Of a DNA stretch of 64,000 nt, positions 75-46,338 are shown in pieces. The translations under genes and the position numbers were made by a program. The stretch comes from Chthonomonas sp. (GTDB taxonomy: Bacteria > Armatimonadota > Chthonomonadetes > Chthonomonadales > Chthonomonadaceae): NCBI RefSeq assembly GCF_035294165.1, contig NZ_DATGLN010000170.1, forward strand, positions 4,227 through 68,226, written 5' to 3'. Position 1 is the stretch's first letter. Every line of letters starts with the position of its first letter. The notes under the pieces are model-generated. The model made no database searches. It was not told the DNA's origin and saw nothing but the letters and a program-made list of their open reading frames with translations.

Positions 75-117
75 CTGCACTTGGTTTTCCAATGGCGGTA
101 GGCCACGTGAGGAGAGT

Positions 118-16041: not shown

Positions 16042-16047
16042 GGATTC

Positions 16048-25814: not shown

Positions 25815-27830
25815 ATGAGACCGTCTTATTCCTGCAAAGAACCAACTCTGAAGTGGCCTGTGCCGTGGTCTCCTCTAAACACTCCAAGGGAGGCTTGCTC
25901 GCACAGACGCGGCTTTTCGCTTATCGAAACTCTGGTGGCGATGGTTATTTTGGCCATCGGCATTCTCTCGCTGGTCAGCCTTTTCCCCGGTGGTTTCGTG
26001 GTGCTGCAGCGCACCAGCGAAATGTCTACAGCGCAAATTCTGGCCAATGAGCAGCTCTCCGACCTGCGCCACATGGAAGGTCCTCCCATCGCCGTGCTCT
26101 CTGCGCTTCCAAAGGCCGATGGAACCATCCAGATTCTCAACGGCACGAACCCGGATGACCTCAGCCCGGCGACGGCGCAAGAGTTAACAGCCCTGCAGGC
26201 GCAGTACAACTTTACCTTACCCACCGGCTTTCTGCCCTACTTCTTCTCCGATGTTAACCGCATTCGCTATATTCAAGGGGAATCGTTTACCATCCCCGTG
26301 GAGGCCACAGGGGTAGGAGGATCCATCCATATTTTGCAGTATGGCCCGGTCTATAACGTGTTTCATACCGATAGCAACGGGAACCCCGTGGATAGTCTCA
26401 ATGTCTATGGCCCTCCTATGACTCGGACCGTGGAGGACTCGCAACCCAATATCAACAACCCAAATCCTATCCCCGTGCTCAACTCGCCTAACGAGTACGC
26501 CATAGACTACACGCACAATCAGATCGCTTTCTATCCACGCCCGGCGCCTACTCCCACCGAAAATCGGCCCAATTTCCGCCTCTTTCTGATGCGCTATCAA
26601 ACCTACCAAACGGATACGAACGGCTATCCGATTCCTAGCTCTTATCAAACCCAAACGGTTACCATTACGGTACCCGATATTCCCGCAGGTCAACCGCTGG
26701 TACCGATTTGGCAGCCGATCTTCCCAAACACGTCGCCACAGCCCAATATCGTTCCCTACAGCGATCAGGTAAGCCGTCAGTTTCGGCTTGTCTCCATGAC
26801 GCCGGGGCCGAACCCGCCATTCACCGATGATCCTTATGAATATGCTTGGCTTAGCCCCCAAGAGCCGAACAATGCAAACCGAGGCGTGCTTATCTTTAAT
26901 CCGCTGGGCCATGTCTCCTCCCCGACGCCTACCGCCAGTGGTACACTCACTCAGCCACAAAACCTCGTGGCCTATGTGGACTATTTGACGTATGATAACC
27001 ACATTATTCGAGACGATTCGGTCATTCCAAGCCAAGCTCCCTACACCATTCGTCTCTCCCTAGGACACATTCTGTCTCAGGGCGATACCTTGCCCGATCA
27101 GACCACTTACAATGGCCTCTTTCATAACGACCCGGCGGATACCTCCCCGGATGATGCCGACCTGATCGTGCAGGATATGGATAACGGGCAGCAACTGTGC
27201 CGCATCGTGGCCGGGCAGAGCACACAGGGGAGCCTTGTGGCGGCCACTTTGGATGCAAAAAACGGCATTCTCACCTTCAGTCAGGCCGGAATCGAGAACA
27301 ACAATCTTCAAAACGCACCTATTCGTATTTTCTATCGAGCCGATAGGCGTTGGGGGATGCAGATCCAAACGGCAAACCCCTATTATCAACTTGTAAGTAG
27401 TCCGACCCAAATCACCTCAACGACCTGCTGGGTGGGAGATGGCACCAACGGCTCTTCACCCACGCGCATCTACTTTGCGCTGAGTGAAGCCGGGAAAACG
27501 GTGACAATCGGCGAGGTGCACTATGCAACCGCCAATACGAACCCCAACGACCCCACAACCTACGGAGTTGTCCATAATGTGACCCTGCAGATCAGCGATG
27601 TTAATCGGGTGGATGTGGTGAATGGGGCGCGGTACGTTTACGCCGATATTAGCGATCAAATTCCGAATGCGACTGCCCTGTCGGCGGTGCCGACGGGGCG
27701 GGCGGTGGATTACGTGTCCGGCATGTCGGTGCGTAGCCGCGTGGTATGGAGTGACCCAGGCAATTCGAACTATATTCTGTGGCGACATATTGACCGCGAC
27801 ACGGTGTTGACGCGGCCGAGCGCGCAGTAG
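25815..27830 (+). CDS. Oversized PilV/GspI-like minor pilin (~670 aa)
   Basis: RRG|FSLIETLVAMVILAIGILSL..LF (PilV-type N-terminus with E5); ATG 25815 preferred to GTG 25671. Confidence 0.8.
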   Translation: MRPSYSCKEPTLKWPVPWSPLNTPREACSHRRGFSLIETLVAMVILAIGILSLVSLFPGGFVVLQRTSEMSTAQILANEQLSDLRHMEGPPIAVLSALPKADGTIQILNGTNPDDLSPATAQELTALQAQYNFTLPTGFLPYFFSDVNRIRYIQGESFTIPVEATGVGGSIHILQYGPVYNVFHTDSNGNPVDSLNVYGPPMTRTVEDSQPNINNPNPIPVLNSPNEYAIDYTHNQIAFYPRPAPTPTENRPNFRLFLMRYQTYQTDTNGYPIPSSYQTQTVTITVPDIPAGQPLVPIWQPIFPNTSPQPNIVPYSDQVSRQFRLVSMTPGPNPPFTDDPYEYAWLSPQEPNNANRGVLIFNPLGHVSSPTPTASGTLTQPQNLVAYVDYLTYDNHIIRDDSVIPSQAPYTIRLSLGHILSQGDTLPDQTTYNGLFHNDPADTSPDDADLIVQDMDNGQQLCRIVAGQSTQGSLVAATLDAKNGILTFSQAGIENNNLQNAPIRIFYRADRRWGMQIQTANPYYQLVSSPTQITSTTCWVGDGTNGSSPTRIYFALSEAGKTVTIGEVHYATANTNPNDPTTYGVVHNVTLQISDVNRVDVVNGARYVYADISDQIPNATALSAVPTGRAVDYVSGMSVRSRVVWSDPGNSNYILWRHIDRDTVLTRPSAQ

Positions 27831-27866
27831 ACCCCTCTGTTGCGTGGTATGAAGGAGCTGGAAACA

Positions 27867-29948
27867 ATGGGTGGGATTCAACTAAAGAGGGTAAAAAGCA
27901 CCGCGAACCATGCGTTCTCGTTGATTGAGCTGCTTGTGGTGATCGCCATCACCTCTATCTTGTTGGTGATCATCACGAAGCCTCTCATAGATGGTTTTAA
28001 CCTTGTAAACCGTGCCAGCACGCAGATAGAGAGCCAGGATACGGCCCGTGATACCCTGCGGGAGCTGTCGGCTCAGCTATCCAACGCGGTTTTTGTCTAC
28101 GACAACAACACACCGCAAACCAGGATCAACCTTTGGCTCTACGACATGAAAGGAAATCCCTACCTAACCTCTGTGCCCTATGGCCTCATCGAGTTTGTCT
28201 CCCCAGGCCTTCAAGGGGAGCAGGGCAACAATTCGAACCAGCCGATAGACCCGACCACCGGTCTGCCTATTGTGCCAGGCGCTCAGGTCTCGCTGCCTTT
28301 GGCGCCGGGTCGCACCATCACACGTTTCTTCATCGGCCTACACGATAATCGCTCCGGTGTGGATACCTCAGGCAATGCGCAGAGCGGCATGCCGGTAGAT
28401 GGCCAAGGAAACTACCACGGCTATGCCAACCGCTGGACCGACCCCCAACTTGCCTCCAAAGACAACCGAATGACACTTTATCGGGTGGAGTTTACTCCCT
28501 ATATTCCCGACCCGGATAACCCAAGTACCTTCATCCCTAATCTCTCTTTGCTGCATACGGGCACAAATCCTAGCGCGCCCACCGACTCCAAAACCGATCC
28601 GCTCATCCTAGACGATCCGAACTTTTTCTACGATGCCACCAAAGCAGGGGCGGGAGATACGGGCGACCCCAAATGGGGTGTGCCGGGATGGCAAAAGATA
28701 GCCGAACGGTATGGCATGCCCACAACGGTGGTCTATCGCTGGGAGAATTGGGCCGCCTTGGCACAAAACTTGATTCAGGCCAATAAAGGCGACGCCATCT
28801 ACCTCGACAGAGATAACAGCGGCAACATCGTGTACGATGCTAATGGTCATCCAACGCCGCATCTCCTTATCAGCTTCGTGCCCTCCTCGGTGCAAAACGA
28901 GTCGGCAACACCGATGAGCGCGAGCGCTACCGGAGATGAGACGCCCTACTCGGCGCCTCCGCTTTATCAGGCGCGGTACGGGGCTTGGGCTATGCCCTAT
29001 GGAGTTTCTGTCTATCGTTCGAGCACGCCTGGTGCCGATCCCCTTTCACAAAACCCACTTACCTACTTCCAGTACTATGTGGATGCTTTCGGCAACGGGC
29101 ACATCGTGGCACAGACGGTCAGTCAGGGCGCTTTGCCACCCGACCCCGCAACGCTTACCGATATCGGGCCCGATCCGAACCCGCTCGGTTTCTGGACGAA
29201 CACCAATGTGAAATTTGCTTTTGCCGTGGACCCGGCGTCCGGCCTTGTCAATTTCGCCTTTCCGCAGTGGGTGCTGAACCTTCAGAGTGGCTATAAGGGG
29301 CCGCAAGTCTACTTCCCGGCCGACATCAATGCGGGCTACGGCGGGACGTATAACTCACGCTATATTTTGCTGTCCGATCTCAGCGGCGCGCCGCCAGAAA
29401 AGGAGAATACCATCTCACCGCTCGGATACTTCCTGAATGCGGTGGGGGTAACGCCGGAGATCGTTCCCGGTAGTGAAGTGGTTGTCGGCCCTGATCAGCG
29501 TCCTGGCCCGCACTATGGTTACGCTATACAGTACACACGTGTGCCGTCGAGCCAGGATGTGATAGGGCCTAACCAGTATAAAATCAACTACATGCCGCTG
29601 CCCGGCTCTAATTCTAACGACCCGCGTTTAATGGTGGGGTATATCGCCTTCGATAACCAGCCGGAGACGTTACAGTCTGCTGGTGGCGATAACCCCCTCG
29701 CCGGGCTGTTCTATCGGAATAACCTGCCCACACAGAAGGTCGTCAACGGCCAAGATGTGCCTGCCGACCCGGTTCAGGTGAGCTATCAGTTCCAACTCAA
29801 CGAGCCTTCGGATGTGGTGAAGGTGAGCTACCGTACTCGCAGCCTAATAGATGTGGTGCTGAGCGCGCGTCTGTTTGATCCCTCTTCGGCGACAGCCCAA
29901 GATACCAATCTCGTCTCTAAAGTGCGCGTACGGAACCTTCAGCGCTAA
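27867..29948 (+). CDS. Oversized PilW/GspJ-like minor pilin (~690 aa)
   Basis: HA|FSLIELLVVIAITSILL...Q..AR..L..L...L.NA; C-terminal SKVRVRN strand typical of PilW; AAGGAG RBS. Confidence 0.8.
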   Translation: MGGIQLKRVKSTANHAFSLIELLVVIAITSILLVIITKPLIDGFNLVNRASTQIESQDTARDTLRELSAQLSNAVFVYDNNTPQTRINLWLYDMKGNPYLTSVPYGLIEFVSPGLQGEQGNNSNQPIDPTTGLPIVPGAQVSLPLAPGRTITRFFIGLHDNRSGVDTSGNAQSGMPVDGQGNYHGYANRWTDPQLASKDNRMTLYRVEFTPYIPDPDNPSTFIPNLSLLHTGTNPSAPTDSKTDPLILDDPNFFYDATKAGAGDTGDPKWGVPGWQKIAERYGMPTTVVYRWENWAALAQNLIQANKGDAIYLDRDNSGNIVYDANGHPTPHLLISFVPSSVQNESATPMSASATGDETPYSAPPLYQARYGAWAMPYGVSVYRSSTPGADPLSQNPLTYFQYYVDAFGNGHIVAQTVSQGALPPDPATLTDIGPDPNPLGFWTNTNVKFAFAVDPASGLVNFAFPQWVLNLQSGYKGPQVYFPADINAGYGGTYNSRYILLSDLSGAPPEKENTISPLGYFLNAVGVTPEIVPGSEVVVGPDQRPGPHYGYAIQYTRVPSSQDVIGPNQYKINYMPLPGSNSNDPRLMVGYIAFDNQPETLQSAGGDNPLAGLFYRNNLPTQKVVNGQDVPADPVQVSYQFQLNEPSDVVKVSYRTRSLIDVVLSARLFDPSSATAQDTNLVSKVRVRNLQR

Positions 29949-30026
29949 AATGTCTTCTAAATGAGTGGCTGCTGGCCAATATCATCATGAATTTCGAGCC
30001 GTTTTGGGTCGAATAGAATAAAAACC

Positions 30027-33000
30027 ATGTCCAATCCGCAGATATCGCTCGATCGGGTTTTTAGGCGCCGCACTGCCGAGCGCGGTCAAACGCTTGTCAT
30101 CGCCCTGGCGGTGATGTTCTTCTTGCTGGTGATCGGCGGGCTTTTCGTGGCCCGCATCGCCCGCAACCTCGTTGTTGCCGGTAACAGCCGCGATTCGGCG
30201 GAGGCACGGCAACTCGCTCAAGCCGGCTTGGACTACTGCAATACCATGCTTAATAGTAGCCTGGAAGGGGCGGATTGGCGCCCCGACCCCACTCCCCCTA
30301 TCGGCCCTACCGACCCCGATTACTTCTGGCTGGTTCGCGGGTTTTCTCGTATTCCCATGAAGGGCGGACGCGCCCTGGTGCGTGTAGCCTACGATCCCAA
30401 CCCGAATAATCCGTTGGGCCAAGCTCTCACCATCGAATCGGTGGGGCGTCCCGGAGAACTCCCCAACCCACCAGGCAGTGACCCAACCGTTTTCGTCCCA
30501 AACGGCAACTCGCCAACCCTGCGCAGCGAGCTGGTGGCCTATAAAGAGATCGGGCTGACGGACTACGGGCTTTACATTACCGGTAAAGACCGACGTACCG
30601 TGCCCAACTACGTGGGAACGCCCTCCATTGGCGCCTACCCGGCCACCGTGTTGGGCAACCCTATGCTGGGCTTTGCTCCGTATGCCAATGGGGCGGCACA
30701 GGTGGGCAACCAACGGTTTTCCATTTTCGGCTTTCCCATCTACTGTAACGGCGATCTCACCTTGGGAGGGGATACCTATCTCTATGAAAGCCATCGTGGG
30801 GGCAACACCGGCGTGGTTCAAGAAGGGGTGTTTGTGAACGGCAAAATTCGTGTAGCCTCCAACCATCCACAAGCTTTTTACTCTACTCTAGATGACACGG
30901 CGCTTCCTGCCTATCTTAACGAGCCGATCAATCTGCCTCCTACCCTGTTATCCCCGAACAATAACGGTGGGGCAGTGATACCCTCCGACGGCATTACGGT
31001 TCAGCAGCAAAACCTTGCATTCAACACCTACGGCGGCGTCATTCGTGACGCAGCAGGCTCCAGTGATGCCAACGGCTTTACGCGCAGCGTTCCCCGTCTC
31101 GACCCACCTAGCCTCGATACCGATCTCTATAACAGCAGCGACCTTCGCTATCGAGTGTTGACGAAAAACTCCGGTTTTTGGGTGAAGCTACCCAACGGCA
31201 GCCAGTTCAACACGGGGCAATATGGGTTAGGCTCCAACATCTACATTGATAATCAGAGCGATCTGCAAAAAGAGACGAGCGTGCCCGGTGTGAACGGCGG
31301 CTATTCGCTAAGGGCGAACTGGATAGACCCCGGTGCTGTGCATAACTACTGGAATGGGCCGTTCTATGTTCCGCCTGGAGTGGAGGTAACGCTGCTGGGC
31401 AACGCTATTCGGCTGACTCGGCATGATGGGAAAGTGTTTTATAATCCGGATGGTTCTTCCGCCGGCAGCACCATCACCATTCCGCTTTGGGACTACGCCA
31501 GAAAGCAGATGGGCTTGCCGCCTCTGCCGCATGATGGAGATGACCCTGCGGCGCGTCAAGCTGCCGGCTTGCCCCCTGTTGGTGGCGACCCGAATGCCTA
31601 TGGGGTGAATCTCACCCTGTTTGCCGAGGGCAATATCATCGTTCATGGCGTCTATGGAGCCATCACGAACGTTCAGGATACGGCAGAGAGCGCTACGACG
31701 AGCAAGCTTGCGCGGGTTCATATCACTCTGGTCACCCGTGGTACGGCCTACATTGACGGCAGCGTGGTGGCCGGCGATGGCTATGTGGATTCGAATGGTG
31801 GCATTCATATGGAGCACGCCTCTACTTGTGCCATTCTCGCCGAGGACTACGTTTGTGTGAATACAACGCAGTTCATGCGCACCGTCTCGGCCAATGTCTT
31901 CAGCCGGGTGAACCCGGATTTGCCGATCTTCTCTACTCCGATCGGGGTAGGGAGCGAATCGTTGCCCTATTTGGACATGGAGTTTAACTGGGGAGTTAAT
32001 CCGTCTACCTATACCTCCAATGGGAACCCCGTGCCCATCTTTCTCATGATGCGCCACGCGGCAACCGGTCCGAATCCTGCCTTTTTCAACCTTCTGGTAA
32101 ACCCCGGCCTTACCAACAACCCTAACAACGCCCTCTATCTTTTCCCGTTCTTCTTGGGGTTTGGCAATAGTCCGTCGCCGACAGGTGCTTTGGGAATTCT
32201 TCCGCAGGTTCCGGGACTACCGCTAGATGATTCTTCTCTTCTACCGCGTTTCCAACAGATCGGACTGCTGATCAATGGCCCACGACCCAGCTATCCCGGC
32301 ATCTTTTCATCAAATAACTTCTTTGCTCCTCAAAACTACCCGCCGATCAACGCACCGGGATACGATAATCTCTTGCGCTTCCAGTTCGATCAGACGGCGC
32401 AACAGCTTTCCGGTTCGCCGATCAGCGGGAGCGACTATCAGTTAAGCGCGGCGATGATTACCCCGCTCGATGTGCGCATCGAGGCCCTGCTTTATGCCCA
32501 AAACCGCTCCTTCTTCGTGATACCGGGCTACGCCTTCAACCCGGATGCCAACGATTCTCGCTCGGCCTATCTGGCGCGCAACAATGTGCGTGTCTCTTAT
32601 AACGCGCAAGATGTCGCGGATGTGGCCAATTCAACGCCCTCGGCCGAACGCGCCTCGAAGGATGTGTTTCCCTTCTACGATGAGCCGCCCGACGTGCGCA
32701 TCACCATTTGGGGAGCGATAGCGGAGAACTATGCGGCCTCGGAGGGCGATCAGGCGGCCTGGATGCATCGCTGGGGCTATATCCCGCAATACTATGGCTC
32801 GACGGCCTACTACCAGAATACGGCGGCACGTGTTCAGGTGCCCGACGATCATCTCTTTAATAGGGATTTCGACGACCCGAACGCGCCCTTTGAGGGCTAC
32901 GATCCGGGACAGGATAATACCATAGACTATCGCACTCCGCTGGAACAGCAGAACGCCAACTACCTGCAAAACGTCACCGCCAACCCGGCTCTGGCCATTA

Positions 33001-33293
33001 CCAACGGCCTGCGCTACGAGTACGCACCGATCTTGGCCATGCCTTACTATCGCGCTACCGACCTTACTTTGGCCAACTCGGCGCTTCTGCGGCGACAGAG
33101 AGCTTTGCGGGTGAACATCATTCAAACGACGGGCGCCGACGGCACTGCCTATACATTCGTTCAGACCTTGCCGCCGATACCCGATCTGCCCGTATGCCCC
33201 AACTATCTTTATGCGGGTGAGAACTCGACAAAGATCGGGTCTGACCCGACGGATACCGATAACTTGGGCTACCTTACCGCTTTTGGAGGATAG
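30027..33293 (+). CDS. Oversized PilX/GspK-like minor pilin (1088 aa)
   Basis: RG|QTLVIALAVMFFLL (no E5, as in PilX), A..LAQAGLDY, TIESVGR. Confidence 0.78.
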   Translation: MSNPQISLDRVFRRRTAERGQTLVIALAVMFFLLVIGGLFVARIARNLVVAGNSRDSAEARQLAQAGLDYCNTMLNSSLEGADWRPDPTPPIGPTDPDYFWLVRGFSRIPMKGGRALVRVAYDPNPNNPLGQALTIESVGRPGELPNPPGSDPTVFVPNGNSPTLRSELVAYKEIGLTDYGLYITGKDRRTVPNYVGTPSIGAYPATVLGNPMLGFAPYANGAAQVGNQRFSIFGFPIYCNGDLTLGGDTYLYESHRGGNTGVVQEGVFVNGKIRVASNHPQAFYSTLDDTALPAYLNEPINLPPTLLSPNNNGGAVIPSDGITVQQQNLAFNTYGGVIRDAAGSSDANGFTRSVPRLDPPSLDTDLYNSSDLRYRVLTKNSGFWVKLPNGSQFNTGQYGLGSNIYIDNQSDLQKETSVPGVNGGYSLRANWIDPGAVHNYWNGPFYVPPGVEVTLLGNAIRLTRHDGKVFYNPDGSSAGSTITIPLWDYARKQMGLPPLPHDGDDPAARQAAGLPPVGGDPNAYGVNLTLFAEGNIIVHGVYGAITNVQDTAESATTSKLARVHITLVTRGTAYIDGSVVAGDGYVDSNGGIHMEHASTCAILAEDYVCVNTTQFMRTVSANVFSRVNPDLPIFSTPIGVGSESLPYLDMEFNWGVNPSTYTSNGNPVPIFLMMRHAATGPNPAFFNLLVNPGLTNNPNNALYLFPFFLGFGNSPSPTGALGILPQVPGLPLDDSSLLPRFQQIGLLINGPRPSYPGIFSSNNFFAPQNYPPINAPGYDNLLRFQFDQTAQQLSGSPISGSDYQLSAAMITPLDVRIEALLYAQNRSFFVIPGYAFNPDANDSRSAYLARNNVRVSYNAQDVADVANSTPSAERASKDVFPFYDEPPDVRITIWGAIAENYAASEGDQAAWMHRWGYIPQYYGSTAYYQNTAARVQVPDDHLFNRDFDDPNAPFEGYDPGQDNTIDYRTPLEQQNANYLQNVTANPALAITNGLRYEYAPILAMPYYRATDLTLANSALLRRQRALRVNIIQTTGADGTAYTFVQTLPPIPDLPVCPNYLYAGENSTKIGSDPTDTDNLGYLTAFGG

Positions 33294-36200
33294 GTGGTTG
33301 CCATGCGCACCGAAGAGGGCATTGTGCTCGATAAGGATAAACCGACTATGAGATGCAAGATATCTCCGCTACAACATGCTATGTGGATGGGGCCGGTTCT
33401 GGGGATATTAGGCCTTATCTTGTCTTGTCCTAAGGCGATCGCCGATGCCACACGCTACACCACACAAACCCGGCAGATCAAGGCTTGTGTGCTTGTCTCC
33501 AACGCGACTTCGCGGGTGGTGAACGGACAGGTCATTAAGAACGATCCGGTTCCTTATCTCTTCTATGCCCTTGATGCGCGTAGCGATTATAAACCGGCGG
33601 GTTGGCAGTTCGTCAACCCATTAGCCCCCTCCACGATTACTCAAGACATCTATAACCGCTGGTTGGCGCGGCAGATCAATCCCGACCCGGCCTTCCAAAA
33701 CGGCACCCCCCAGTCGCTTATCTTTCGTGTGGGAGCGTCGGTTAGCAAAAATATGGGCGCCTATTGGGAGGAAGACCTCGACACGATAAGCCAGCAGGCG
33801 CTCGACAGTTACGACATCGCGTTTCTCCCTCTGCAAGGTAGCCGATTGGGGTCGGGAACCATTCAATTCGATGAAAACGAGGTCGAGAAACTCCGCCAGT
33901 TCGTCGATTCGGGCGGCATCCTTTGGATAGAGAACGATGGAGCTACCGGCTTCACTTCGGACGGTGGCAACTTCCTGTTTCCGTTGCAACTGACCGCTGC
34001 AACCGACAGCCCTGGATTTAATATTTTGCAGCCCCTATCCACCCTCTTCAACGATCCCTATCCGCTCTCTGTTGCGGATACGGTCAACTTTGTGCATACG
34101 TTTAGTGGCAATATTTTCGCTGCCCTAGGTGGAGGGCTTGTAGACCCGCACACAATGGCACCGATATTGGGCGCTTCGGCTCCGTTTGTCTATGCGGGCA
34201 ACTATGGGGCAGGGCATATTCTGCTTTCCAGCGTTGGCATCGCGGCGGCAATCAATGCCGCTCTGGGTGCCCCAAATCCTACCAATGTTACCGGCAGCGC
34301 CAACGATGGGGCCGTTAGCGGTGATACCGTGATCGCCGCTCCCACCACACCGCTGAAGTTCGCCTACAACGTTGCCGCATGGACAGGGGCGATGCCGGCA
34401 GCGAACGCCAACTCCCATCGCGATTCGTCCACCCAAGAGATCATCGGGGCGAACTTGGAAACGGCCTGGTCTACCGTGCCCCTGAACAATCCTCCCAACC
34501 CAGGCTCCGGAGTGGCCATTGACCAAAACGTTGCCGCCTATGTAGACGGAAATAACGGACTTCATGTTTATAACCTGCATCCTGGACAAGCCTTAACGGG
34601 TTATTCCCTTTTTGCGGATAACGGCATTCCCGACTTCGTGTATGGCACCCCTTACGATGAGATATGGAACACCTTTTTGGGCGCAAACAGCCGCTACTCC
34701 ACACCTCTGTTGGCATCGGTGACAAACCCGGCCAACGGCCAAACAGTGGAAGTATGTGCAGTAACCAACTCTTTGGGGGTGACCGGTGTGTTTAACGCGC
34801 TGCCCGGTTTTCCCGGCCCTCTACAGTCCACATCGCCGTTGCTGTTTCAGGTCGGGCAGGCCGGGCAGGCCAACACGGCCATTGATGACACGGCCTCGCT
34901 GCTCGATCCGCTGCCGGTTCCCGGCCCTGCCTACGCCGGAGGGGTGCTGTTTGCACCGGTTTATGACAATGCCAACAACGATGCCGGCCATGCCTGGCAC
35001 GTGGTGGCCGTAGACCTGCTCGGCTCGATCTCCGCAGGACAGGTCGTCAACGCCTTTTCCAACAACGCCAATGGAGTGGCTCCTTCTGTGGCACCAAGCG
35101 CTTTGGCCAACGGATTGAGCGACCTGGTAGGGCCGCTGACGGTTGGATGGGTACCCGACCAGCAGACCGGGGCGGAAGATGAGGTGGTCTATGCTGCGGC
35201 ACAGGCCGAGCCGAACGGAACGCCGGCGTCACAAGGACAACTGGTAGGGCTTTGGTTCGCAACCAAAAATGAGCCTCTGCAGCCGGTAGACCAACCTCAG
35301 AACGGGCTTAATTATAAGTTTGAACCGCATGGAGCACGAGCCTGGGTGCCGTGGTACCTTACACCACCGAGCGGTGCCAACACGCTCGATTTAACACCGG
35401 TGGTGCACGTTACCGAGACTGATACGAACACCGGTAATGTGATAGATGTAAAGACCTATCATCTAAGCGACGGCGTTTTTACGGTGAGTTATAACGGACC
35501 TACGCCACCCGATGGAACCGGCTCGCCGAGTGGACATCAGATCATGGTGACCTTCAATCCCAACAACGGGATTTTGCTGAACGATACTCAGAACCATATC
35601 GTTCGCACGGTCAGTGTGGACTATACGCTTGATTGGCCGGGCGATGCAATTAACGGGTTAAGCCCAAGCCAACAAGATATGCAGCTTGTCGTGCAGCGGA
35701 GGACGTTTACGCTCTACCCGGAAAGCTCCGTCTCCTCTCCACACTATCTCATAGGTGGGGCTGTGCTTGATGACCAGGGGGCGGCCATCTTTGCTTCCTC
35801 ACCGCAAGGCCTTACGGACAAGGTGATGATATCGGGCAATCCGCTACCCGATCGTATCTACAGCGTTATCGGCCAATACTCGACGTTGAGCGGCCCCGCC
35901 TCCGGACAGGTGGTTAACTGGATGTTCTCCCCCATGTACGGCGGCACTTTCGACGGCAACACCATTCGCCCGAGGCTGGTCTATACCGATCCAACTACCA
36001 ATGCCCAGGCATCCATCGTGCAGTTTCGTGTGGTGGGGCAGCCCGCGCTTCTGAACGGTACGGTGTATGTGGTTGGAGTGGCTGCGGATGCCAATGGGGA
36101 TAAGTTCACTGCCATTCTCGCGCTCAACAGCCAGATCAACCCTGTGGTACCGTTGAACCCACCGATCCTGTACAAAACCTCAGCGACCGCCGCACCCGTT

Positions 36201-38273: not shown

Positions 38274-38280
38274 GAAAAAG

Positions 38281-41200
38281 ATGAGGGAACGAGAGATGAG
38301 GCACAAGAGTGCGCTCTCCTTTGGGATAATATCACTGTGCGGGTTGCTCCTCGCTTTGGCGGCGATGGGGGCACACGCTCAGTTCGCCTTTACCAACGAC
38401 GACTGGACGTTAGACCGTGGTGCGCTAACGCTGGATGCCAATAACAATGGGCTTGCGTTGCGCCAAGGCTATAACAACTTCACCGACCTCGCCAACCAGC
38501 CTTTTCATGGCCTTCCACGGTGGGTATGGCCTACCGGCGTAGACCTGCTCGGCGCACAGAACGGTGGTTCAAACCAAACCTCTGGCGTCTCCGCTCTCAA
38601 TCCCATCATCGTGGATAACCCTCCTGGATTTCCAGGAAATAAGGAGATTTTTGATCCTAACGTCACCCAGAACGCCCTTTCGGTGTGGAATACGAACGTT
38701 TTTACCGTTCCTCCCATAGCGCAGCGGGTGCCGCAGGCCGGCTTCTCTTTTGGAACCGACCCCACCGACCCCAACAACTTCGACTACGGCATCGCCACGC
38801 CGCAGCCGGTTACCATTACCTATACCGGCTCGAACGGCAGCACGGTGACGGCAACAACAGACCAGCTAACCCAGCTGCCCTATGTTCCTCCTCAGCTATA
38901 CGCTGCGGTGAACAACGCGCTCAATAATGCCCAGCCGGTAGCCCAATGGACTATGGGGAACCCCATACTCCCCACTGCCCTACAAGGGGTTACCCTGAAC
39001 TACACCGTGTCCATCTGGTCTCCAGGAGATGGGACTTTAGATGCCAACGACGTTCCTCATCCCGATCTCAAGCACGCTTTTGTGCGGGTAAGCTGGTTTC
39101 ACACGGTTAACGGCAATACCATCAACAACACCGGCACTCCGGGCGGAGGCGGAGTTTACGATGTGGTTAACAGCCGTATCTACATGATAGACCTTTCCGG
39201 CGGGCCGGGCTGGCGCGTTATCGGCCCCTATGCGGCTTCTAGTACTACATCGGTGACACCTGCCGTCTTTCCTTATAACAGCAACGACCCTACCAGCCAG
39301 ATCGTGGTGACCCTTTACGTGCTCACCCCGGATAATCCCAACGATACCTCCCTCTATCTTCATCCGCCCTACGTCACCGCCGACGCTGTGGAGTTTGTGC
39401 CGCTTGGCATCGCCAACACAGGGAATAATGGCGGCGCCATTGCGCAGTCACCTCTAGGCCCCATCAGCGCTCAAGGCCGTATTCTTGCTCCGGTGGTTGG
39501 TAGCAACAAAGTGGTTACAAACCCCAACGATCCGGAGTTTGGAAAAACCGTTTACTACGTGGCACGTGAAGAGGCAATTGCGAACACACCACCTACGTCA
39601 CCGGTAGACCCAACACAGACGCCCCTAACGCCTGGCAACGATGCTTACACCACTTTCACCGTACCGGTATTCTACTGTCTCAACAATGAAGACGGCATTC
39701 AGATTGTAAACGGCCAGCCCCAAGAGCTGCCCTCTAAAACCCGTGTGCGCTGGCGCTATGTGGCGCTACCGGATGCGGGGACGGGTACCTGCACGGCCTC
39801 ACCTCTGCTTGCCAATGTGCGCTGCCGTGATGGCAAGGTTCGCCCGATGGTCTACTTTGTGACCACTGCAGCCGGCGGAGCTTTGGGGCATATCTACGCC
39901 CTGGACCCGGTTGGAAATAACCCCTTCGGCCCAGACCCCGGCGATCTGTCCACTCGTACCACAACGGCCTATTGGGTCTATCCGTCGGTGCGACCCCTGT
40001 TAGGAACGGCAAATGAGCCACCCAATGCGCCGGCTCAGTGGGAAGACCCCAACTTCAGCCTTCCGGCAAATACGGGGGCTTATAGCCGTACCGGCTATCC
40101 GGCCTTCAGTTTCGGGCCGGATCAGCCCACCGATTCGGGCGGCCACCTCATCTACGATGGAGATATTATTCCCAATCCCAACACGACGGCGGCGGCCACG
40201 ACCCCCTACATCGTGCGTAACGATACACTTCTCACCATGACGGGAATGACTTGGACGCCCACGCTAGTAGACGACCCCGATAACCCGAATGGGCCCCAAC
40301 TGTTGATCGTAACCGCACAAGGATCGGATAGTGGGCATGGGCGTGTCTATGCCTTCGACGCCGGGGGGCGTGGAGATTTCGGCACGATTAACGTGAATAA
40401 TCAGCAGTTGGCCGTTGCAGGAACGACCCAGCGCATCTGGACATGGCCACGCTTCGGCGCCGATACCTTCCATAGGGTGAATACACCGAGCGCCACCGGC
40501 GGATTTAACATGGCCGACAACTTTAGCGATGAGCCGCAAATCGGGTTCCTTGCTGGGTCCCCTATGTACGACCCGAACTATGCCGGAGGAACTGCCGAGA
40601 AGCCTCTGGTCGTGGGCGCTTCCGATGGCCATGTCTACGCCATCCTCGCTCATCACGACACGGTTCCCAACGTGAACGGCACTCAGGTGACTTACGATAA
40701 TACAAAGCGGCTCTACTGGACCTATCCTTCTACGGCCGGCCCTGGGTTGGGGGCAGCACCCAGCACCGTTGCCTTCTACCAACCAACAGGCTCCAATAAT
40801 CGCTATCTGGTGTTCACCTGCGACACTCCTGATGGGGGTGGACGGGTCTATGCACTACCCGAAGCGACGCCCAACGGACAGACCGTGCCCTTTACAAATC
40901 AATTAACGTGGGTCTTTCCGCCAACGCCCGATCCACCGAATCCAGACCCCAATAACCCCAATGGAACGGCACCGTTTGTGCCCGGTTTCGGGGGCAATGC
41001 GCCCGTTCCGGTCAACAGCGGTCTGCTTCCACAGGGAACTTTGCCTTCCGACGTGATCTATGTGGTGCAGAGCGACGGGACGGTAGACGGCATACAGGTG
41101 GACGGCAATGGCTTGAATCCAAAGCTCTACGCCACGAATATCCCTCAATCGGGCTTCGTCTTTTCATCGCCGATCATAGCCCAACTCCAGGCCGATCCAT

Positions 41201-44200
41201 CGGAGGGACTGCTAGATGGCACCACCTTAAGCTATAACGTACCCTATCCTTGTCTCGTCTATTCTGACGATACGGGCAACTTCTATGGAGTGGGCCTCCA
41301 AGCTTATAACGATGGCAACGGCAATATCTTCTTGCCGCTTATATGGAATCCGCCTACAACTTCTGGTAGTGTACGCTCTGCCGCCTCGGCGTTGATCAAT
41401 AGCTACATTGTGGAGGGCGACGAGGGCGGACAGGTAACGGCATTTACAAATGGAACGGGAAATAACGGTTTAGTAAGTCCATTGCCGTCTGTTGAGCTGC
41501 GTGGCGGCGGGAACGACCAAAGCCTGGTGGATATTGATATTCGTGGCGTAGATTACTTCGCGCAGAACGTATGGAACACCTTCTGGCCGAATGGAACCAC
41601 AGGAACCCCCTTTAGCGCGAACGCCCTTGTTGGCCAAGTGCCGGACGGTACCAATGGCCTCGCTGTAGACTGGGGCGACCATCTCTATGTGGCGGCATGG
41701 GGAGTCTACCATGCGGAGCCTCAGCAGCCTGGGTTGACGGCCTACGGCACCGCGCCGCCGCGCATAACGGTGACGTTCCGCATTGATGTGCCGCGTGGCA
41801 ACCGAACCATCACCGTTCAGGTGCCTGCCACCACCGCCAATGGGCAGCCTGCCGGTTGGCCTGGCGATGCCGGTGCCGGAAACCAGCAGTTTACTATCTG
41901 GGGTGATGACCCCAACAATCCGCCTCCTAACTCGCAGAACGGCGCTTCGGGTCTGCTTACCGGCCCCACACACTATGTGTTTCCGTGGGTGGCAGTGGCC
42001 TCTATTCCGATTCAGCCGGATGCGAATAACCCGGTAGCCCCCGGCATATCCGGCTACCGGGTTTCGGCTCGCGCCCATATCGAGCAGAACGTTGTTTACA
42101 AAAACGGCAACCAAACTATCAACTACACGCCGGCTCGTTTCGATTCACCGCTCTTTTTCGGCGGACAACGGGATGTAAACGGGGCCGACCATGGCTACAT
42201 TTTAGGCAATTTAAGTCGTGCCTTACAAAGCTCTCCGAATAACATCGCGGCTCGTGGACGGCCACGACGCGTCTACATTACAAACCCGTTGGCGCTTACC
42301 GTCGCCGGTACAAACCCGTCCGGTTCAGGAAGTGCCGACCAAACAGGCAGCAACATCTTCAACATCATTGGTTGGGCGCCGGCGGCGGATAATCCCAATA
42401 TCACCATCAATAACATCGCCGAACTACTTGGCAACGGGGCACAGACCGGTTGGATAGGCAACTTCGGTGTAAAGTCGCTCTTTGCCCCACTTGATATGGC
42501 CGTAGATGGCAACAGCGTGCAGTATCGTGGCATAGATGCAAACGGGAACCGAGTTCCGGCGTTTTATGTGGAGGATAGAAGCGCTTACCAGTTACTTACG
42601 GGGAGTCCGCTCAACATTATTGTGCAGATGCCCTCGCTAGTTTGGTGGGGCGGACCCAGCTCGGTGATGAACCCGCTGCCTTGGGAGCAGCTTCCCGGTG
42701 ACGGCACAAGCACGCCGGATTACCCGGCCATTGCGGCTTCCAATGTCTCTATCGTAGGGCAAAACGGGGTGGATGCTACCCGTGCTGCCTTGCCTTTGCC
42801 TGCTCCCGCATTGCCTAGTGGAGACAATAATGTGGCCGACCGCAACCCCACACCGGAACAGCTGAACCTTACGGTGAACGTGCCGAAGTATCAACCGGCC
42901 AATGTAAACCGCGGCATCGTGCAGACTGCCTTCGGGAATTTCGGCGACTCGTTTACGAATGAGGCAGGGCAGGTGCTCGGGGCGCTCGGTTCGCCGGTGC
43001 TCGGTCCCATCCGCACATTCAACGATGGACAGCCGCCGACCACGCCGGGAACAGGTACTTTCCCCGCTTTAGGCTACATCGCCCAGAGGGCACAGGTGGT
43101 TGTTCAGTTGCCAGGGCGGCCTTTGCGACCCGGGGTCTTTAATGGATACAATCGCGCAGAAATCGAGGAGGCGCGCCGCCAGTTCAACCTTGGCATGTGC
43201 GTGGCACCTTCGTTCCGCCTCCATGTGGAGGGCGCTGCACTCGATTTCGGCAACGTGCCGGCAGGCACGGGCTACTCGCCGGTTAACAATAACGGTGTGC
43301 ATAGCATTCCGTTTGCCCCAACGGGGACGGCACCTTATGCCAATACGGTCTCACCGTGGGACGACCCAAAGCAATTCGGCGAGTTTTTCCAACCGTTCAC
43401 CTTGATGAGCGACAGCAACGTGAACCTCGTGGATTTGCGCATCGCCACGCTGATCGGGCAGCCCGGCTCTACGTTCAGCGCTGCCTCCCTAGCCCCTGGC
43501 CTCGCACCTTCCACAGGGGCCGCCGTGGCGCAAGGGCTACAGAGCGATCAGGTTGACCAACTATTCTCCTCCTGGCTGCTTGCGCCCCCCTTCGGCTCTG
43601 CGAACAGCCCCATTCCCACGCCGGGAACGGGCAACATCGGGATCGTTTCCTCGTTTGACCATCCCTACAACAACGGCCAGGCGAACCTGAGCGACATCCT
43701 GTTCTATCCGATCCCCAATCCGTTCTGGACGCCAACCAACGGACTGCAGCCCTATCCCACGCTGCACAAACCTCTGCCCGGAGATGCGCAGGGCACGGTG
43801 GCTACCATTCCCGATGTGCCGCATGGCTATGTGCCGAGCGGTAACGGTTTGAAACCTCAGCCGCCAAAGCTCGGCATCGCCGTCCCCCTCGGCACACCGG
43901 TGGGAACCTACGTAGGAACGGTGGTGCCCTATGAGGATGAGATGCCGTTACAGTGGCGGGAATGGCTGGCCACATCGGGGAGTAACTATGGCAGTAGTGC
44001 GTTGGCCGGCAACGATGACGATATTTTGAATACTAATCCTGTAGGGCAAGCGCTGGAGGCCTACGCGAATCCGGACATTCAGGTGAAGGTAACTGTGGTG
44101 CCGAACCGCCTTACAGGGGGAACCACGCAGGGCAGCTTGAGCCAGATAGATACGGTGAACTTTGCTGCGCCGAACAACTTGGGCAAATCCAGCCCGAGCG

Positions 44201-46338
44201 CTACCTTGCCCACCGGTTTCAATATGCTGCCGGCAGCCGTTCTCTATCCCGCAAGCGATAATACCAGCGGCCTCTATCTCTACTGGGCCTCTAACTCGCT
44301 GCGCGGCAATACGGCTCCAGGCCCTACAAGCCCATCCGATATTCTCTACAGCTGGCTTACCATGCCCTACCTTAATCTAGGCTCGTTGGGTGGGGTAGGA
44401 TACATGAGTTTTGCTCAGTTCGGCCAACCGAATCAGCAGCAGTGGTGGAATCCCATGACACCTCTGCTGGATATAACCAATACCGGATTACTGCAGACGT
44501 TCTTTCCTTCTACCGGTGACAACACGGTGCCCGGTACCCCGATACCGGGTACGGTGCAGTTTGCCAGCCCCGCCATAGCGACAGCGAACGATGTGGATGC
44601 CAACGGCAACATTACCGTGGGGCCGCCTAGCGACAACGAAGCCTATCTCTTCTTTGCAGGCCAGGTACAAAAACAGACGGCGCCAAACCAGGAGGTTACC
44701 GAAATGCGGTTCTTCTGGCAGCCCTTGAGCACAACCTATCCCTACGTACCACAGGGAACACCGAACTTTGTGCCCGGAAATCCCTATGTGCCAAAGTACG
44801 ACCCTGCCCCACTGCTGGTAAAGCTGGCTGCCGATAGCGGACGAAACGTTCCTGCTCAGAAGCTCCTCTATCTGTTCTACTCGGTTGGGCGCCAAGACCA
44901 TACACAAATCTACTACAACTTTAACCTAAGCACCAGTCTGAACGGCTCCATCTCGCAAGCGGGTTGGCAACCGGATGGGATTCTGTTGCCCACGCCTATC
45001 ACCTTAGGGCAACAGAGCCATCCGTCGGCTATCTATCGGCGCGTCTATGCGCAAAATCCGTTCAATACAAGTTCGGATGTGCGCGTCTTCGATGCCATAG
45101 ACCTCTACTTTACCGGTGTGTTGCCAGGTCGCGGCGATCATGCCGAGACGCTCATGATCCGGTACGGAATATATCGTGGGGAGAACTTAGGCCCGAATGC
45201 TCCGGCTATGGTGCCCGGCCAGCTCTTCGTGTTGCCGCTGCCTCCGGTAACGGATGAAACACTGACCCGAGCGGGGGCTACAAACCATTTCGTCTCACGC
45301 GATGTGGGTTGGTATATCGGCTACAACAATCAGCAGCCGTTTAGCAACGTCCAGCCCTACATTTCCCTGGAACGGATTGACCAAAACGGCAATGTGCTTC
45401 AGTTGTTGGCGGGCCCAGGCACCTTTGATCCCGCTTCGCAAACAATCACCTATAATTCAGCCCTCGGTGGACGTATCGTCGTTGACCCACAGTCTGGCAT
45501 TGTACGCTTCCCGGATGTTCCTCCGAAAAGTACCGATATTGTTCGGGTAAGCTACATTCCACAGGTCATGCGGCTGAACACCAGCCGAGACGATAGCAAC
45601 CTGGTTGTTGCCGGCGGTTATGGGAATATCCCAACCAACCCGCTGCCGCCGGCCTTCCAAGCGCATCCTGCGGTGGATACGGTGGGCATCAACACCGCGC
45701 CGGAGGTGCTGCTGGATCGCAGCCCCAACCCACGCCAACTGCTTACTAATCCAACCGTTGTGTTCGATTCTAAGGGGAACCCGCTAGGAGCCAATGGGCC
45801 GGCCATGCTTACGGATAGGCTGTGGCTGTTCTACCATAAAACAGACGTCACGGGCAAAACGAAGTCGGCCGTCTACTTCAAGACGATGCGCCTGATGATC
45901 AAGCTGCCCTACCCGGTAGCAGTCGCCAAAAACAACAATGGAGTTACCCAGATAGTAGGTCTTACGGTAACAGGGGCTAGAGGGCCTTATGAGGTAGACT
46001 GGCAGCGTGGACGTATCTACTTCACCGAAGCGGATGAGGGCAACCAGGTACAGGTGGCCTATACCTACTACAATCCGGCTACCAACACCACGGCAAACTC
46101 CGGCACGCTAACCTATCAGGTCGCCTGGGGAGATGAGATGAGCGACACCCTCGGCAACGATGTTTACGAGGCGCCGTTGCCGGTAAATGGGGCTGTTAAC
46201 GAAGGGCAGATCGCCGTGTTAAAAGACCCGTTGATGAACCGGCTTTGGGTGTTCTGGGCAAGTACCCGCGCCGGCACAACCGACCTCTACATGGCCGCTC
46301 TCGCGCCCAAATTTTATCCAGACCTGGTGGGGCAGTAA
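38281..46338 (+). CDS. Giant secreted PilY1-position adhesin-like protein (2685 aa) with golvesin-like and PQQ-like propeller regions
   Basis: Signal peptide ending AHA|QF; IIVDN...VTADAVEF; repeated HIYALD/RVYAFD/GASDGHVYA/RVYALP...W.YP blades; C-terminal LWVFWASTRAGTTDLY. Confidence 0.7.
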   Translation: MREREMRHKSALSFGIISLCGLLLALAAMGAHAQFAFTNDDWTLDRGALTLDANNNGLALRQGYNNFTDLANQPFHGLPRWVWPTGVDLLGAQNGGSNQTSGVSALNPIIVDNPPGFPGNKEIFDPNVTQNALSVWNTNVFTVPPIAQRVPQAGFSFGTDPTDPNNFDYGIATPQPVTITYTGSNGSTVTATTDQLTQLPYVPPQLYAAVNNALNNAQPVAQWTMGNPILPTALQGVTLNYTVSIWSPGDGTLDANDVPHPDLKHAFVRVSWFHTVNGNTINNTGTPGGGGVYDVVNSRIYMIDLSGGPGWRVIGPYAASSTTSVTPAVFPYNSNDPTSQIVVTLYVLTPDNPNDTSLYLHPPYVTADAVEFVPLGIANTGNNGGAIAQSPLGPISAQGRILAPVVGSNKVVTNPNDPEFGKTVYYVAREEAIANTPPTSPVDPTQTPLTPGNDAYTTFTVPVFYCLNNEDGIQIVNGQPQELPSKTRVRWRYVALPDAGTGTCTASPLLANVRCRDGKVRPMVYFVTTAAGGALGHIYALDPVGNNPFGPDPGDLSTRTTTAYWVYPSVRPLLGTANEPPNAPAQWEDPNFSLPANTGAYSRTGYPAFSFGPDQPTDSGGHLIYDGDIIPNPNTTAAATTPYIVRNDTLLTMTGMTWTPTLVDDPDNPNGPQLLIVTAQGSDSGHGRVYAFDAGGRGDFGTINVNNQQLAVAGTTQRIWTWPRFGADTFHRVNTPSATGGFNMADNFSDEPQIGFLAGSPMYDPNYAGGTAEKPLVVGASDGHVYAILAHHDTVPNVNGTQVTYDNTKRLYWTYPSTAGPGLGAAPSTVAFYQPTGSNNRYLVFTCDTPDGGGRVYALPEATPNGQTVPFTNQLTWVFPPTPDPPNPDPNNPNGTAPFVPGFGGNAPVPVNSGLLPQGTLPSDVIYVVQSDGTVDGIQVDGNGLNPKLYATNIPQSGFVFSSPIIAQLQADPSEGLLDGTTLSYNVPYPCLVYSDDTGNFYGVGLQAYNDGNGNIFLPLIWNPPTTSGSVRSAASALINSYIVEGDEGGQVTAFTNGTGNNGLVSPLPSVELRGGGNDQSLVDIDIRGVDYFAQNVWNTFWPNGTTGTPFSANALVGQVPDGTNGLAVDWGDHLYVAAWGVYHAEPQQPGLTAYGTAPPRITVTFRIDVPRGNRTITVQVPATTANGQPAGWPGDAGAGNQQFTIWGDDPNNPPPNSQNGASGLLTGPTHYVFPWVAVASIPIQPDANNPVAPGISGYRVSARAHIEQNVVYKNGNQTINYTPARFDSPLFFGGQRDVNGADHGYILGNLSRALQSSPNNIAARGRPRRVYITNPLALTVAGTNPSGSGSADQTGSNIFNIIGWAPAADNPNITINNIAELLGNGAQTGWIGNFGVKSLFAPLDMAVDGNSVQYRGIDANGNRVPAFYVEDRSAYQLLTGSPLNIIVQMPSLVWWGGPSSVMNPLPWEQLPGDGTSTPDYPAIAASNVSIVGQNGVDATRAALPLPAPALPSGDNNVADRNPTPEQLNLTVNVPKYQPANVNRGIVQTAFGNFGDSFTNEAGQVLGALGSPVLGPIRTFNDGQPPTTPGTGTFPALGYIAQRAQVVVQLPGRPLRPGVFNGYNRAEIEEARRQFNLGMCVAPSFRLHVEGAALDFGNVPAGTGYSPVNNNGVHSIPFAPTGTAPYANTVSPWDDPKQFGEFFQPFTLMSDSNVNLVDLRIATLIGQPGSTFSAASLAPGLAPSTGAAVAQGLQSDQVDQLFSSWLLAPPFGSANSPIPTPGTGNIGIVSSFDHPYNNGQANLSDILFYPIPNPFWTPTNGLQPYPTLHKPLPGDAQGTVATIPDVPHGYVPSGNGLKPQPPKLGIAVPLGTPVGTYVGTVVPYEDEMPLQWREWLATSGSNYGSSALAGNDDDILNTNPVGQALEAYANPDIQVKVTVVPNRLTGGTTQGSLSQIDTVNFAAPNNLGKSSPSATLPTGFNMLPAAVLYPASDNTSGLYLYWASNSLRGNTAPGPTSPSDILYSWLTMPYLNLGSLGGVGYMSFAQFGQPNQQQWWNPMTPLLDITNTGLLQTFFPSTGDNTVPGTPIPGTVQFASPAIATANDVDANGNITVGPPSDNEAYLFFAGQVQKQTAPNQEVTEMRFFWQPLSTTYPYVPQGTPNFVPGNPYVPKYDPAPLLVKLAADSGRNVPAQKLLYLFYSVGRQDHTQIYYNFNLSTSLNGSISQAGWQPDGILLPTPITLGQQSHPSAIYRRVYAQNPFNTSSDVRVFDAIDLYFTGVLPGRGDHAETLMIRYGIYRGENLGPNAPAMVPGQLFVLPLPPVTDETLTRAGATNHFVSRDVGWYIGYNNQQPFSNVQPYISLERIDQNGNVLQLLAGPGTFDPASQTITYNSALGGRIVVDPQSGIVRFPDVPPKSTDIVRVSYIPQVMRLNTSRDDSNLVVAGGYGNIPTNPLPPAFQAHPAVDTVGINTAPEVLLDRSPNPRQLLTNPTVVFDSKGNPLGANGPAMLTDRLWLFYHKTDVTGKTKSAVYFKTMRLMIKLPYPVAVAKNNNGVTQIVGLTVTGARGPYEVDWQRGRIYFTEADEGNQVQVAYTYYNPATNTTANSGTLTYQVAWGDEMSDTLGNDVYEAPLPVNGAVNEGQIAVLKDPLMNRLWVFWASTRAGTTDLYMAALAPKFYPDLVGQ

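Follow-up and report, generated by a model that had tools for sequence, protein, structure and literature searches.

A five-gene module of oversized type IV pilins and two giant exported proteins in Armatimonadota: a candidate self-licensed pilus tip

Introduction

What does a type IV pilus locus build when its minor pilins are of unusual length and are followed by two still larger exported proteins? The question is raised by a 64,000-nucleotide stretch of DNA (the window) from Chthonomonas sp. (phylum Armatimonadota; RefSeq assembly GCF_035294165.1, contig NZ_DATGLN010000170.1, positions 4,227 to 68,226), in which five neighbouring genes, here called V, W, X, Y1 and Y2, had been proposed to encode a supersized pilus tip. 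In current models, the tip is armed either by a PilY1 adhesin that plugs into PilK or by the grafting of modules onto the pilins, and cis-licensed systems, where PilK supplies its own last strand, are described as being without tip adhesins. The locus studied here seems to bring together a PilK licensed in cis, modules grafted onto all three core pilins and two giant non-PilY1 partners. The notable point is the pairing of the cis-licensed K pilin with these two partners. If Y1 and Y2 are bound to the tip, they would represent a third mode of attachment and test how large an object a secretin passes. It would likewise put a name to the chief surface organelle of a phylum that has received little study, and of which named cultured members exist.

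Fimbriae have been reported for Fimbriimonas, and the part of its genome paper that deals with pili counts the pilus genes and 79 pseudopilins, with no description of the five-gene module in that part (PMC4072686). In the accessible text of PMC6668835, Armatimonadota are mentioned once, in connection with a type II secretion system (T2SS). We found no description of the five-gene locus in literature on pilins, pili or fimbriae of Armatimonadota or Chthonomonas, within a coverage that mostly excluded subscription journals.

A conserved five-gene module

The five genes are co-oriented open reading frames (ORFs) on the plus strand, located at 25815-46338 as the original prediction had it, and the main domains recognised or predicted within them are as follows:

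25815..27830, + strand: V, probable giant PilI/PilV-type minor pilin, 671 aa (638 mature), Glu5 present
27867..29948, + strand: W, predicted giant PilJ/PilW-type minor pilin, 693 aa, Glu5 present
28887..29834, + strand: insert of W, residues 330-645 (~316 aa)
30027..33293, + strand: X, predicted giant PilK/PilX-type pilin, 1088 aa, no Glu5; pilin core, ComZ-like beta-solenoid and further inserts
31875..32465, + strand: beta-sandwich within X resembling carbohydrate-binding modules (CBMs) of families CBM6/CBM35/CBM36, residues 617-813 (predicted model)
33210..33221, + strand: C-terminal strand of X, residues 1062-1065, predicted last pilin strand
33294..38273, + strand: Y1, exported, 1659 aa; DUF4159-like N-terminus, interrupted PQQ-type propeller, C-terminal NHL propeller
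38281..46338, + strand: Y2, exported, 2685 aa; N-terminal PQQ-type propeller, conserved C-terminal ~700 aa

Gaps between the genes range from 0 to 78 nt (V/W 36, W/X 78, X/Y1 0, Y1/Y2 7). The giant sizes claimed for the three pilins and the two signal-peptide proteins were confirmed (671, 693, 1088, 1659 and 2685 aa). Together they amount to 6796 aa, with 2380 mature residues in V, W and X and a summed mature mass of 711 kDa for all five. The smallest V-W-X set in nature, that of G030, has ~1740 aa. The length of W assumes an ATG start behind AAGGAG, as the ORF itself opens at TTG 27840. All five genes are present as one copy each in the Chthonomonas sp. genome.

The predicted class III signals and the presence of Glu5 in V and W but not X also held. 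V and W have a class III signal with Glu5 and match PF07963 above the cut-off, while X has a leader and a hydrophobic helix but no Glu5 and returned zero Pfam and zero NCBIfam matches. V, W, X and Y2 each have a single N-terminal hydrophobic peak; Y1 has one N-terminal peak and a weak second peak at 309. The leaders of Y1 and Y2 end in A-x-A, which we read by eye as Sec/signal peptidase I sites. All five proteins are acidic (pI 4.55-4.81). Their composition (Asn 7.2-8.2%, Pro 7.6-10.4%, Thr 6.3-8.9%, Gly 6.0-10.3%, Lys 0.7-2.5%) was compared to a genome baseline from long six-frame ORFs (Asn 3.3, Pro 6.0, Thr 5.5, Gly 7.8, Lys 3.3%). Of the visible richness in Asn, Pro, Thr and Gly that had been pointed out, Asn and Pro are clearly raised, but Gly is not raised in V.

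To determine how widespread the module is, we queried 251 Armatimonadota genomes, 205 of them high-quality. X was matched in 238 of the 251 (E<=0.001) and in 200 of the 205. As weak single-protein matches of X could be limited to the helix, a profile was run on 50 genomes selected for being divergent or negative, and 49 of these matched, three by the N-terminal helix alone. The giants co-occur with the pilins, as proposed: the Y1 profile matched 177/251 genomes (E<=1e-8) and the Y2 C-terminal profile 169/251 (E<=1e-6), with one copy of each in nearly all genomes bearing them. Neither was found by profile searches in families f6 (0/23), f10 (0/4) and f26 (0/12), where X is kept, which counts against a PilY1-like need for the giants. 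In family f19, Y1 was present in 7/9 genomes and Y2 in 0/9 with the Y2 C-terminal query.

Gene order is conserved across relatives. In 20 loci from 19 genomes that were viewed in full, W, X and Y1 were adjacent in all 20, Y2 followed Y1 in 19, and V was found in 19, the remaining contig ending before V. Of the 80 GTDB loci selected for their X score, 67/68 have Y1 after X, 55/55 have Y2 after Y1, and 52/52 have V and W ahead of X, counts that cover loci long enough to tell and represent close kin rather than independent cases. Because the same order is conserved in relatives, the five-gene module is not a chance arrangement. It is a real, phylum-wide and uncharacterised module. We found no characterised orthologue, in line with the claim that no characterised system has this architecture, although modular tip pilins as such have precedents.

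A pattern scan across GTDB returned 295 relatives. The best 80 mostly have Armatimonadota titles, several are titled 'bacterium' and two have titles from other phyla, and the nearest named relative is a Chthonomonas sp. contig at 94% identity in X. The out-of-phylum matches (L199, L204 and one partial protein) are probably mis-binned: in the phylum of the genome with L204, which is the one that the mis-binning test covered, this genome was the sole full match among 151, next to one helix-only match. An apparent 2645-aa fusion of X in G049 was ruled out, as the X gene there encodes 996 aa. Deep branches have an extra ~250-aa pilin between V and W, and G145 contains two module copies, each with W, X, Y1 and Y2 (L041-L044). 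Within the stretch examined, neither copy is joined to pilBTCD. G046 and G096 have a further X-like gene, of 1330-1410 aa, that seems to stand alone.

X is predicted to be a ComZ-like pilin that completes its own fold

A sequence search of the PDB with the X profile returned pilin helices only. An AlphaFold2 model of X built from 137 sequences (predicted local distance difference test (pLDDT) 88.8, predicted template modelling score (pTM) 0.91) opens with an N-terminal helix of 56 residues, followed by four strands (107-173) and a long insertion rich in beta structure; its last strand (1062-1065) lies in a block with a pLDDT of 93. The only Foldseek match at E<=0.001 was Thermus ComZ (PDB 6QVI, E 9.8e-5). 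In VIA comparisons, X matched ComZ with Z 11.3-11.8 over 270-275 residues (model 128..1062 on ComZ 49..513), ice-binding-protein solenoids with Z 10.5-11.3, and GspK with Z 6.9 (root mean square deviation (rmsd) 3.1, 98 aligned; model 49-1069 on GspK 29-315). Residues 617-813 resemble CBM6/35/36 sandwiches (Z 7-8.2, rmsd ~3 Å, ~115 aligned). X is thus predicted to be a K-type pilin with a ComZ/GspK fold, where the added domains sit inside the pilin fold.

In ComZ, the solenoid follows the penultimate pilin strand and precedes the last one (PMC6561018). PilK either receives its last strand from the PilY1 tail or supplies this strand itself, and Thermus is described as a system without tip adhesins that has a large insertion before the last PilK strand (PMC13533445). 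The model predicts that X likewise supplies its last pilin strand in cis, through residues 1062-1065, a strand pairing that rests on structural alignment ranges. A similar C-terminal tail of X was found in 27 deep-branch sequences, alike in lineages with and without Y1 and Y2. If X is complete in cis, it would have no slot or need for a PilY1 plug.

W and V are probably oversized J- and I-type pilins

For W, an AlphaFold2 model built from 74 sequences (pLDDT 90.7, pTM 0.83) had pilins as its five best VIA matches: TTHA1219 (Z 7.5; rmsd 3.2, 128 aligned), XcpW (6.8), EpsJ (6.0), GspJ (5.7) and PilB of Streptococcus sanguinis (5.5). As the pilin matches each span W from ~40 to 682, the N- and C-terminal ends make up the J core, with the additional mass inserted between them. 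W is therefore predicted to be a pilin of the GspJ/PilW fold with an insert. The insert (330-645) resembles an immunoglobulin-like sandwich, with weak matches, and the beta-sandwich nested in it (454-632) weakly matches phage baseplate, tail and contractile-injection modules, with Z up to 4.3. A Foldseek search of W against PDB and BFVD returned nothing at E<=0.001, the weak rows being baseplate and sheath proteins.

For V, a match to TIGR02523 (PilV) was found below the cut-off in 15 of 19 orthologues, and a profile comparison of V and W matched at the N-terminal helix alone. The PDB sequence search with the V profile returned pilin helices only, and the middle of V had a single match in the atlas search, to an Armatimonadota cluster at 0.76. 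Sequence thus points to V as a probable PilI/PilV-type pilin. Considering gene order, the Glu5 pattern and the W and X folds, W and X, and probably V, are I/J/K homologues in the type IVa pilus family, which bears out their reading as I/J/K-type tip pilins of a retractile pilus.

The best match of X is the DNA-binding ComZ and that of W is the Thermus protein TTHA1219, and this genome carries pilT as well as a ComEC-family gene. These observations would fit a module that is mainly a competence tip, with DNA bound by X as by ComZ and a secondary part for Y1 and Y2. ComZ binds DNA via two lysines (PMC6561018), whereas all five proteins here are acidic and Lys-poor. Moreover, ComEC is common, with matches in 10 of 14 control genomes, and a role in DNA uptake leaves the CBM-like modules unexplained. 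We consider a competence tip distinctly improbable.

Y1 and Y2 are giant exported proteins without a PilY1 signature

Y1 and Y2 are large, have Sec-type leaders and are encoded after X, like PilC/PilY1. Among 19 Y1 orthologues, we identified DUF4159 in 12, NHL in seven and PQQ_2 in five, and the atlas neighbours of Y1 were PQQ-propeller and ThuA clusters, below 0.9. A PQQ-type propeller together with the CBM-like Golvesin_C domain was found in 11 of the 12 Y2 orthologues scanned, with one to seven Golvesin_C profile matches per orthologue; no Golvesin module was detected in the Y2 of the window or of four other close relatives. The length of Y2 ranges from ~1400 to 3800 aa across relatives, while the last ~700 aa are conserved and end in a short conserved tail. 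This C-terminal part had 776 relatives at E<=0.001 (50% clustering).

The Y1 and Y2 profiles have one propeller stretch in common (probability 88%), and a V window matched Y2 in five rows, which at a best E of 5.5e-5 is a lead only. Profile comparisons of the Y2 C-terminus with V and W were weak (11% and 1%). Two further leads are a match of one Y1 to DUF2460 (E 0.0099) and a weak PDB match of the Y2 C-terminal profile to the RcGTA distal tail protein (E 0.051), whose insertion domain has been described as oligosaccharide-binding-like (PMC7296036). From sequence, a small beta module may be common to V, Y1 and Y2. A PHROGs search with the five window proteins found no match.

Y1 and Y2 had been presented as two proteins in the PilY1 position. 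One or both could be a divergent PilY1 that contributes a strand to X through its C-terminal tail, licensing assembly, which would be consistent with their position after X, their Sec leaders, their propellers and the conserved tail of Y2. The PilY1 signature PF05567 (IPR008707; bioRxiv 10.64898/2026.09.18.752573; PMC13190605) matched none of 19 Y1 and 13 Y2 sequences at E<=0.01-0.02, and genome-wide searches, run without a positive control, matched 0/251 genomes and neither of two further ones. In addition, X appears from its model to be cis-complete, whole families, including f6, f10 and f26, keep V, W and X without Y1 and Y2, and both tails contain proline, the Y1 tail resembling the closing strand of its NHL propeller in alignments. 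A PilY1-like plug is thus very improbable, and the 'PilY1-position' label fits gene order only. The domain families that had been suggested as a check were found in part: N_methyl in V and W, DUF4159 and PQQ_2 in some Y1 orthologues, but no PF05567, and no Pfam match in X.

Pilus machinery and alternative roles for Y1 and Y2

The window also encodes core machinery of a type IVa pilus upstream of V, where the retraction ATPase that the original prediction relied on was recovered above the cut-off:

17270..19048, + strand: pilB extension ATPase (MshEN and T2SSE domains); best match TIGR02538, 630 bits, slightly below the cut-off of 675.65
19151..20425, + strand: pilT retraction ATPase; TIGR01420, 508.7 bits, above the cut-off
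20436..21668, + strand: pilC platform protein; two PF00482 domains
21765..22829, + strand: pilD prepilin peptidase; PF06750 and PF01478 above the cut-offs
22916..23686, + strand: pilin 1, 256 aa, N_methyl, weak DUF1559; candidate major pilin
23773..24762, + strand: pilin 2, 329 aa, paralogue of pilin 1

On another contig (C190) we found pilM (PilM_2), a small STN-domain protein and a 623-aa secretin. The gene in the PilO position weakly matches T2SSM, and PilN and PilP are assigned by position only. The type IVa parts encountered, known here from genes alone, thus include PilB, PilC, PilD, PilT and a PilMNOP-type complex with a secretin. In many relatives, pilMNOPQ-type genes adjoin the five-gene module, with a pilM-like gene directly after Y2 in many genomes and directly after X in f26; Pfam tests of PilM identity covered the Chthonomonas sp. 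genome and G144. In G144, a break in the locus separates Y1 from Y2, and Y2 is found at a distance of 2.2 Mb, heading the pilM-to-secretin genes. This ties Y2 to both halves of the locus.

The stand-alone small STN-domain protein precedes the secretin in all three genomes tested by Pfam (L206 on C190, 3832-4626; L026, 7400-8050; L207, 5239-6015) and may extend or split the periplasmic part of the secretin. Three tandem secretin-like genes, the middle one a partial match, were located within ~4 kb in the f6 genomes G046, G096 and G072, which lack Y1 and Y2.

That Y2 moves with the pilM-to-secretin genes in G144 could mean that V, W and X form the tip and that Y1 and Y2 are parts of the envelope machine, namely periplasmic or secretin-associated scaffolds or chaperones with a role in folding, retaining or gating the oversized tip. 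Like machine parts, they are single-copy nearly everywhere they are present, and their PQQ-type propellers resemble BamB-family scaffolds (atlas 0.83-0.85, leads only). Conversely, the longest X proteins (1200-1400 aa, in f6 and f32) occur without Y1 and Y2 yet with secretins, and the variable number of CBM-like modules better fits an outward-facing ligand binder. We regard such a role as unlikely.

TcpF and CofJ are exported by type IVb pili. Y1 and Y2 could similarly be cargo that is pushed through the secretin and released into a surface or matrix layer, since they have Sec-type leaders and no visible anchor, and the topology of X is closer to GspK and ComZ than to PilY1-dependent PilX. This genome has a separate T2SS on contig C82, distinct from the pilus locus, and the strict operon position and near-perfect co-occurrence of Y1 and Y2 (~170 genomes) would be unusual for cargo, so that we consider release improbable. 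The GspK (600 aa) and GspD (950 aa) of the C82 T2SS are both longer than usual.

A proposed tip and the evidence against it

The reading that we prefer, and which we consider about equally likely to be right or wrong, is a self-licensed I-J-K tip on which Y1 and Y2 are accessory, tip-mounted polysaccharide adhesins. Its parts differ in strength. V, W and X very probably form a tip trimer; that Y1 and Y2 ride on it is favoured by a little, and a glycan as the ligand is a guess from fold hints. In this scheme, PilD would process V, W and X, which would form the I-J-K starter trimer and end at the tip of a retractile type IVa pilus. As X would complete its own sheet in cis, no PilY1 plug would be needed. 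Y1 and Y2 would cross the inner membrane via Sec, fold in the periplasm and be loaded on the trimer by domain contacts, for which the insert of W is one candidate. Loading of PilY1 in the periplasm or the secretin has been proposed (bioRxiv 10.64898/2026.09.18.752573), and the loaded Y1 and Y2 probably wait in the secretin as PilY1 does. PilB would then push the loaded tip out, the CBM-like modules of X and Y2 would grip glycans, and retraction by PilT would pull the cell to a surface or substrate. Modular tip pilins that bind glycans have a precedent (PMC9934059).

The insert of W is a candidate docking site for Y1 and Y2, and no more than that. Occupancy of W residues ~361-640 was 0.58-0.89 in 20 core rows and 0.46-0.70 in 15 deep genomes bearing Y genes, but 0.10-0.21 in 12 genomes lacking them. 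Mature W has at least 459 aa in all 15 deep Y-bearing genomes and 232-342 aa in 9 of the 12 sampled Y-less ones, with 525-609 aa in the other three. A complex prediction of the insert (330-645) with the NHL propeller of Y1 scored 0.00 in two runs in which the controls did not fold either, and counts neither way.

Several observations weigh against the proposed tip. The insert is missing from nine of the 12 Y-less genomes, but its association with Y1 and Y2 is imperfect, as the other three keep a long W and the nine with a short W group into about three clades on a tree with weak support. Y-less genomes occupy at least four places on this X tree (FastTree on a trimmed alignment, midpoint root), whose deep nodes are weak, so that the order of gains and losses cannot be read from it. 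Contact between Y1 or Y2 and any of the pilins is hypothetical. The Z of 7-8.2 for the CBM-like domain of X lies within the range of common folds, and Y2 of the window had no Pfam match and none to the local Golvesin profile. Finally, an ordinary-sized secretin (623 aa) would have to accommodate a tip of ~711 kDa, far above ComZ, which is ~60 Å wide and thereby close to the secretin pore (PMC6561018). Were the insertions nested end to end, a long thin body might result.

A bolder version, which we hold as doubtful, is a ~0.7-MDa baseplate-like glycan-capture head. Here, a self-licensed, ComZ-like PilK and giant PilI and PilJ would carry two non-PilY1 giants via small beta-sandwich modules of the phage baseplate/distal-tail kind, through an ordinary-sized secretin. 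The hints of such modules in W, Y1 and Y2 are all weak.

Comparison with known systems

The closest structural relative of X is found in Thermus thermophilus, where ComZ acts with PilA1-3 (PDB 6QVI; PMC6561018). Like X, ComZ is a K-type tip pilin without Glu5, in which an ice-binding-protein-like beta-solenoid precedes the final pilin strand as an insertion. X has roughly double the length of ComZ and carries CBM-like and other inserts, V and W are three to four times the size of ordinary I/J pilins, and two giant exported partners follow. The Thermus system is described as lacking tip adhesins (PMC13533445), unlike the role proposed here for Y1 and Y2.

In PilHIJK-PilC/PilY1 systems (FimU-PilV-PilW-PilX-PilY1; PMC13533445; bioRxiv 10.64898/2026.09.18.752573), the I-J-K order and the Glu5 pattern are the same, large Sec-exported propeller proteins follow the pilins, and a retraction ATPase and PilMNOPQ-type machine are present, as they are here. 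The Armatimonadota locus differs in having two partners that lack the PilY1 signature and are dispensable in several families, a K pilin predicted to be cis-complete, and pilins that are themselves giant.

Streptococcus sanguinis PilABC includes minor pilins onto which adhesin modules, among them a lectin, have been grafted (PMC9934059), and its PilB is among the matches of W (Z 5.5). That system is monoderm, with no secretin and no non-pilin partners. Its modules are appended after the pilin fold in proteins of ~50 kDa, while those of the present locus are inserted inside the fold of proteins of 70-115 kDa. Since large modular tip pilins have precedents in ComZ and S. sanguinis PilB/PilC, the design of the locus extends a known kind.

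W has its predicted J fold in common with the T2SS GspI-GspJ-GspK complex (PDB 3CI0), and X its predicted K fold and cis C-terminal strand. The locus has pilT, PilB and PilM, however, and differs from the genome's own T2SS on C82. Weak N-terminal matches of V to protein B and W to protein C of the Verru_Chthon cassette (TIGR02596-TIGR02600) remained far below cut-off (V 24.7 bits against 51.4, W 29.5 against 256.5, X none) and covered the N-terminal helix only.

Neighbouring genes and further observations

In most relatives, one pilin-1-like gene lies ahead of V, with a tandem pair in the closest relatives. The Chthonomonas sp. genome has 52 ORFs that match pilin 1 or pilin 2, and ~50 dispersed pilin-like genes of 220-310 aa with a near-identical DUF1559-type N-terminal helix occur on many of its contigs. 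We found nothing relevant in PubMed Central or bioRxiv that links DUF1559 with pilins. The ~0.9-kb gap between pilin 2 and V (24763-25670) is pieced together from an intergenic repeat family that occurs throughout the genome, with 595 blastn matches there and 89-nt copies inside the gap; a sigma-70-like promoter was looked for in the gap and none was found. Two RNA runs (X1 and X2), which may be the same data set, gave contigs that were short and of low depth.

Upstream of pilB are ruvX, a HAD phosphatase and aroE (14768-16923), and genes resembling aroC, aroK and aroB follow the secretin in several relatives (read by eye). These aro genes flanking the pilus genes point to an old, vertically kept locus. 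Further upstream are a 1157-aa polysaccharide export protein with many SLBB domains (6550-10023, + strand) and, downstream of it, a GH42-like gene (13109-14311). A 1060-aa protein combining an adenylate/guanylate cyclase with NB-ARC and TPR domains is encoded at 58884-62063 on the minus strand.

In Y-less lineages, other exported proteins are encoded after X. In f32, two proteins of ~450-530 aa, one with PD40 repeats, directly follow X and have no detectable kinship to the Y2 C-terminus, and in one of the f32/f40 lineages X is followed by a 1101-aa exported protein with a Big_5 domain. These genes (L092, 17093-19921; L109, 4885-8021; L123, 2754-6056) possibly replace Y1 and Y2.

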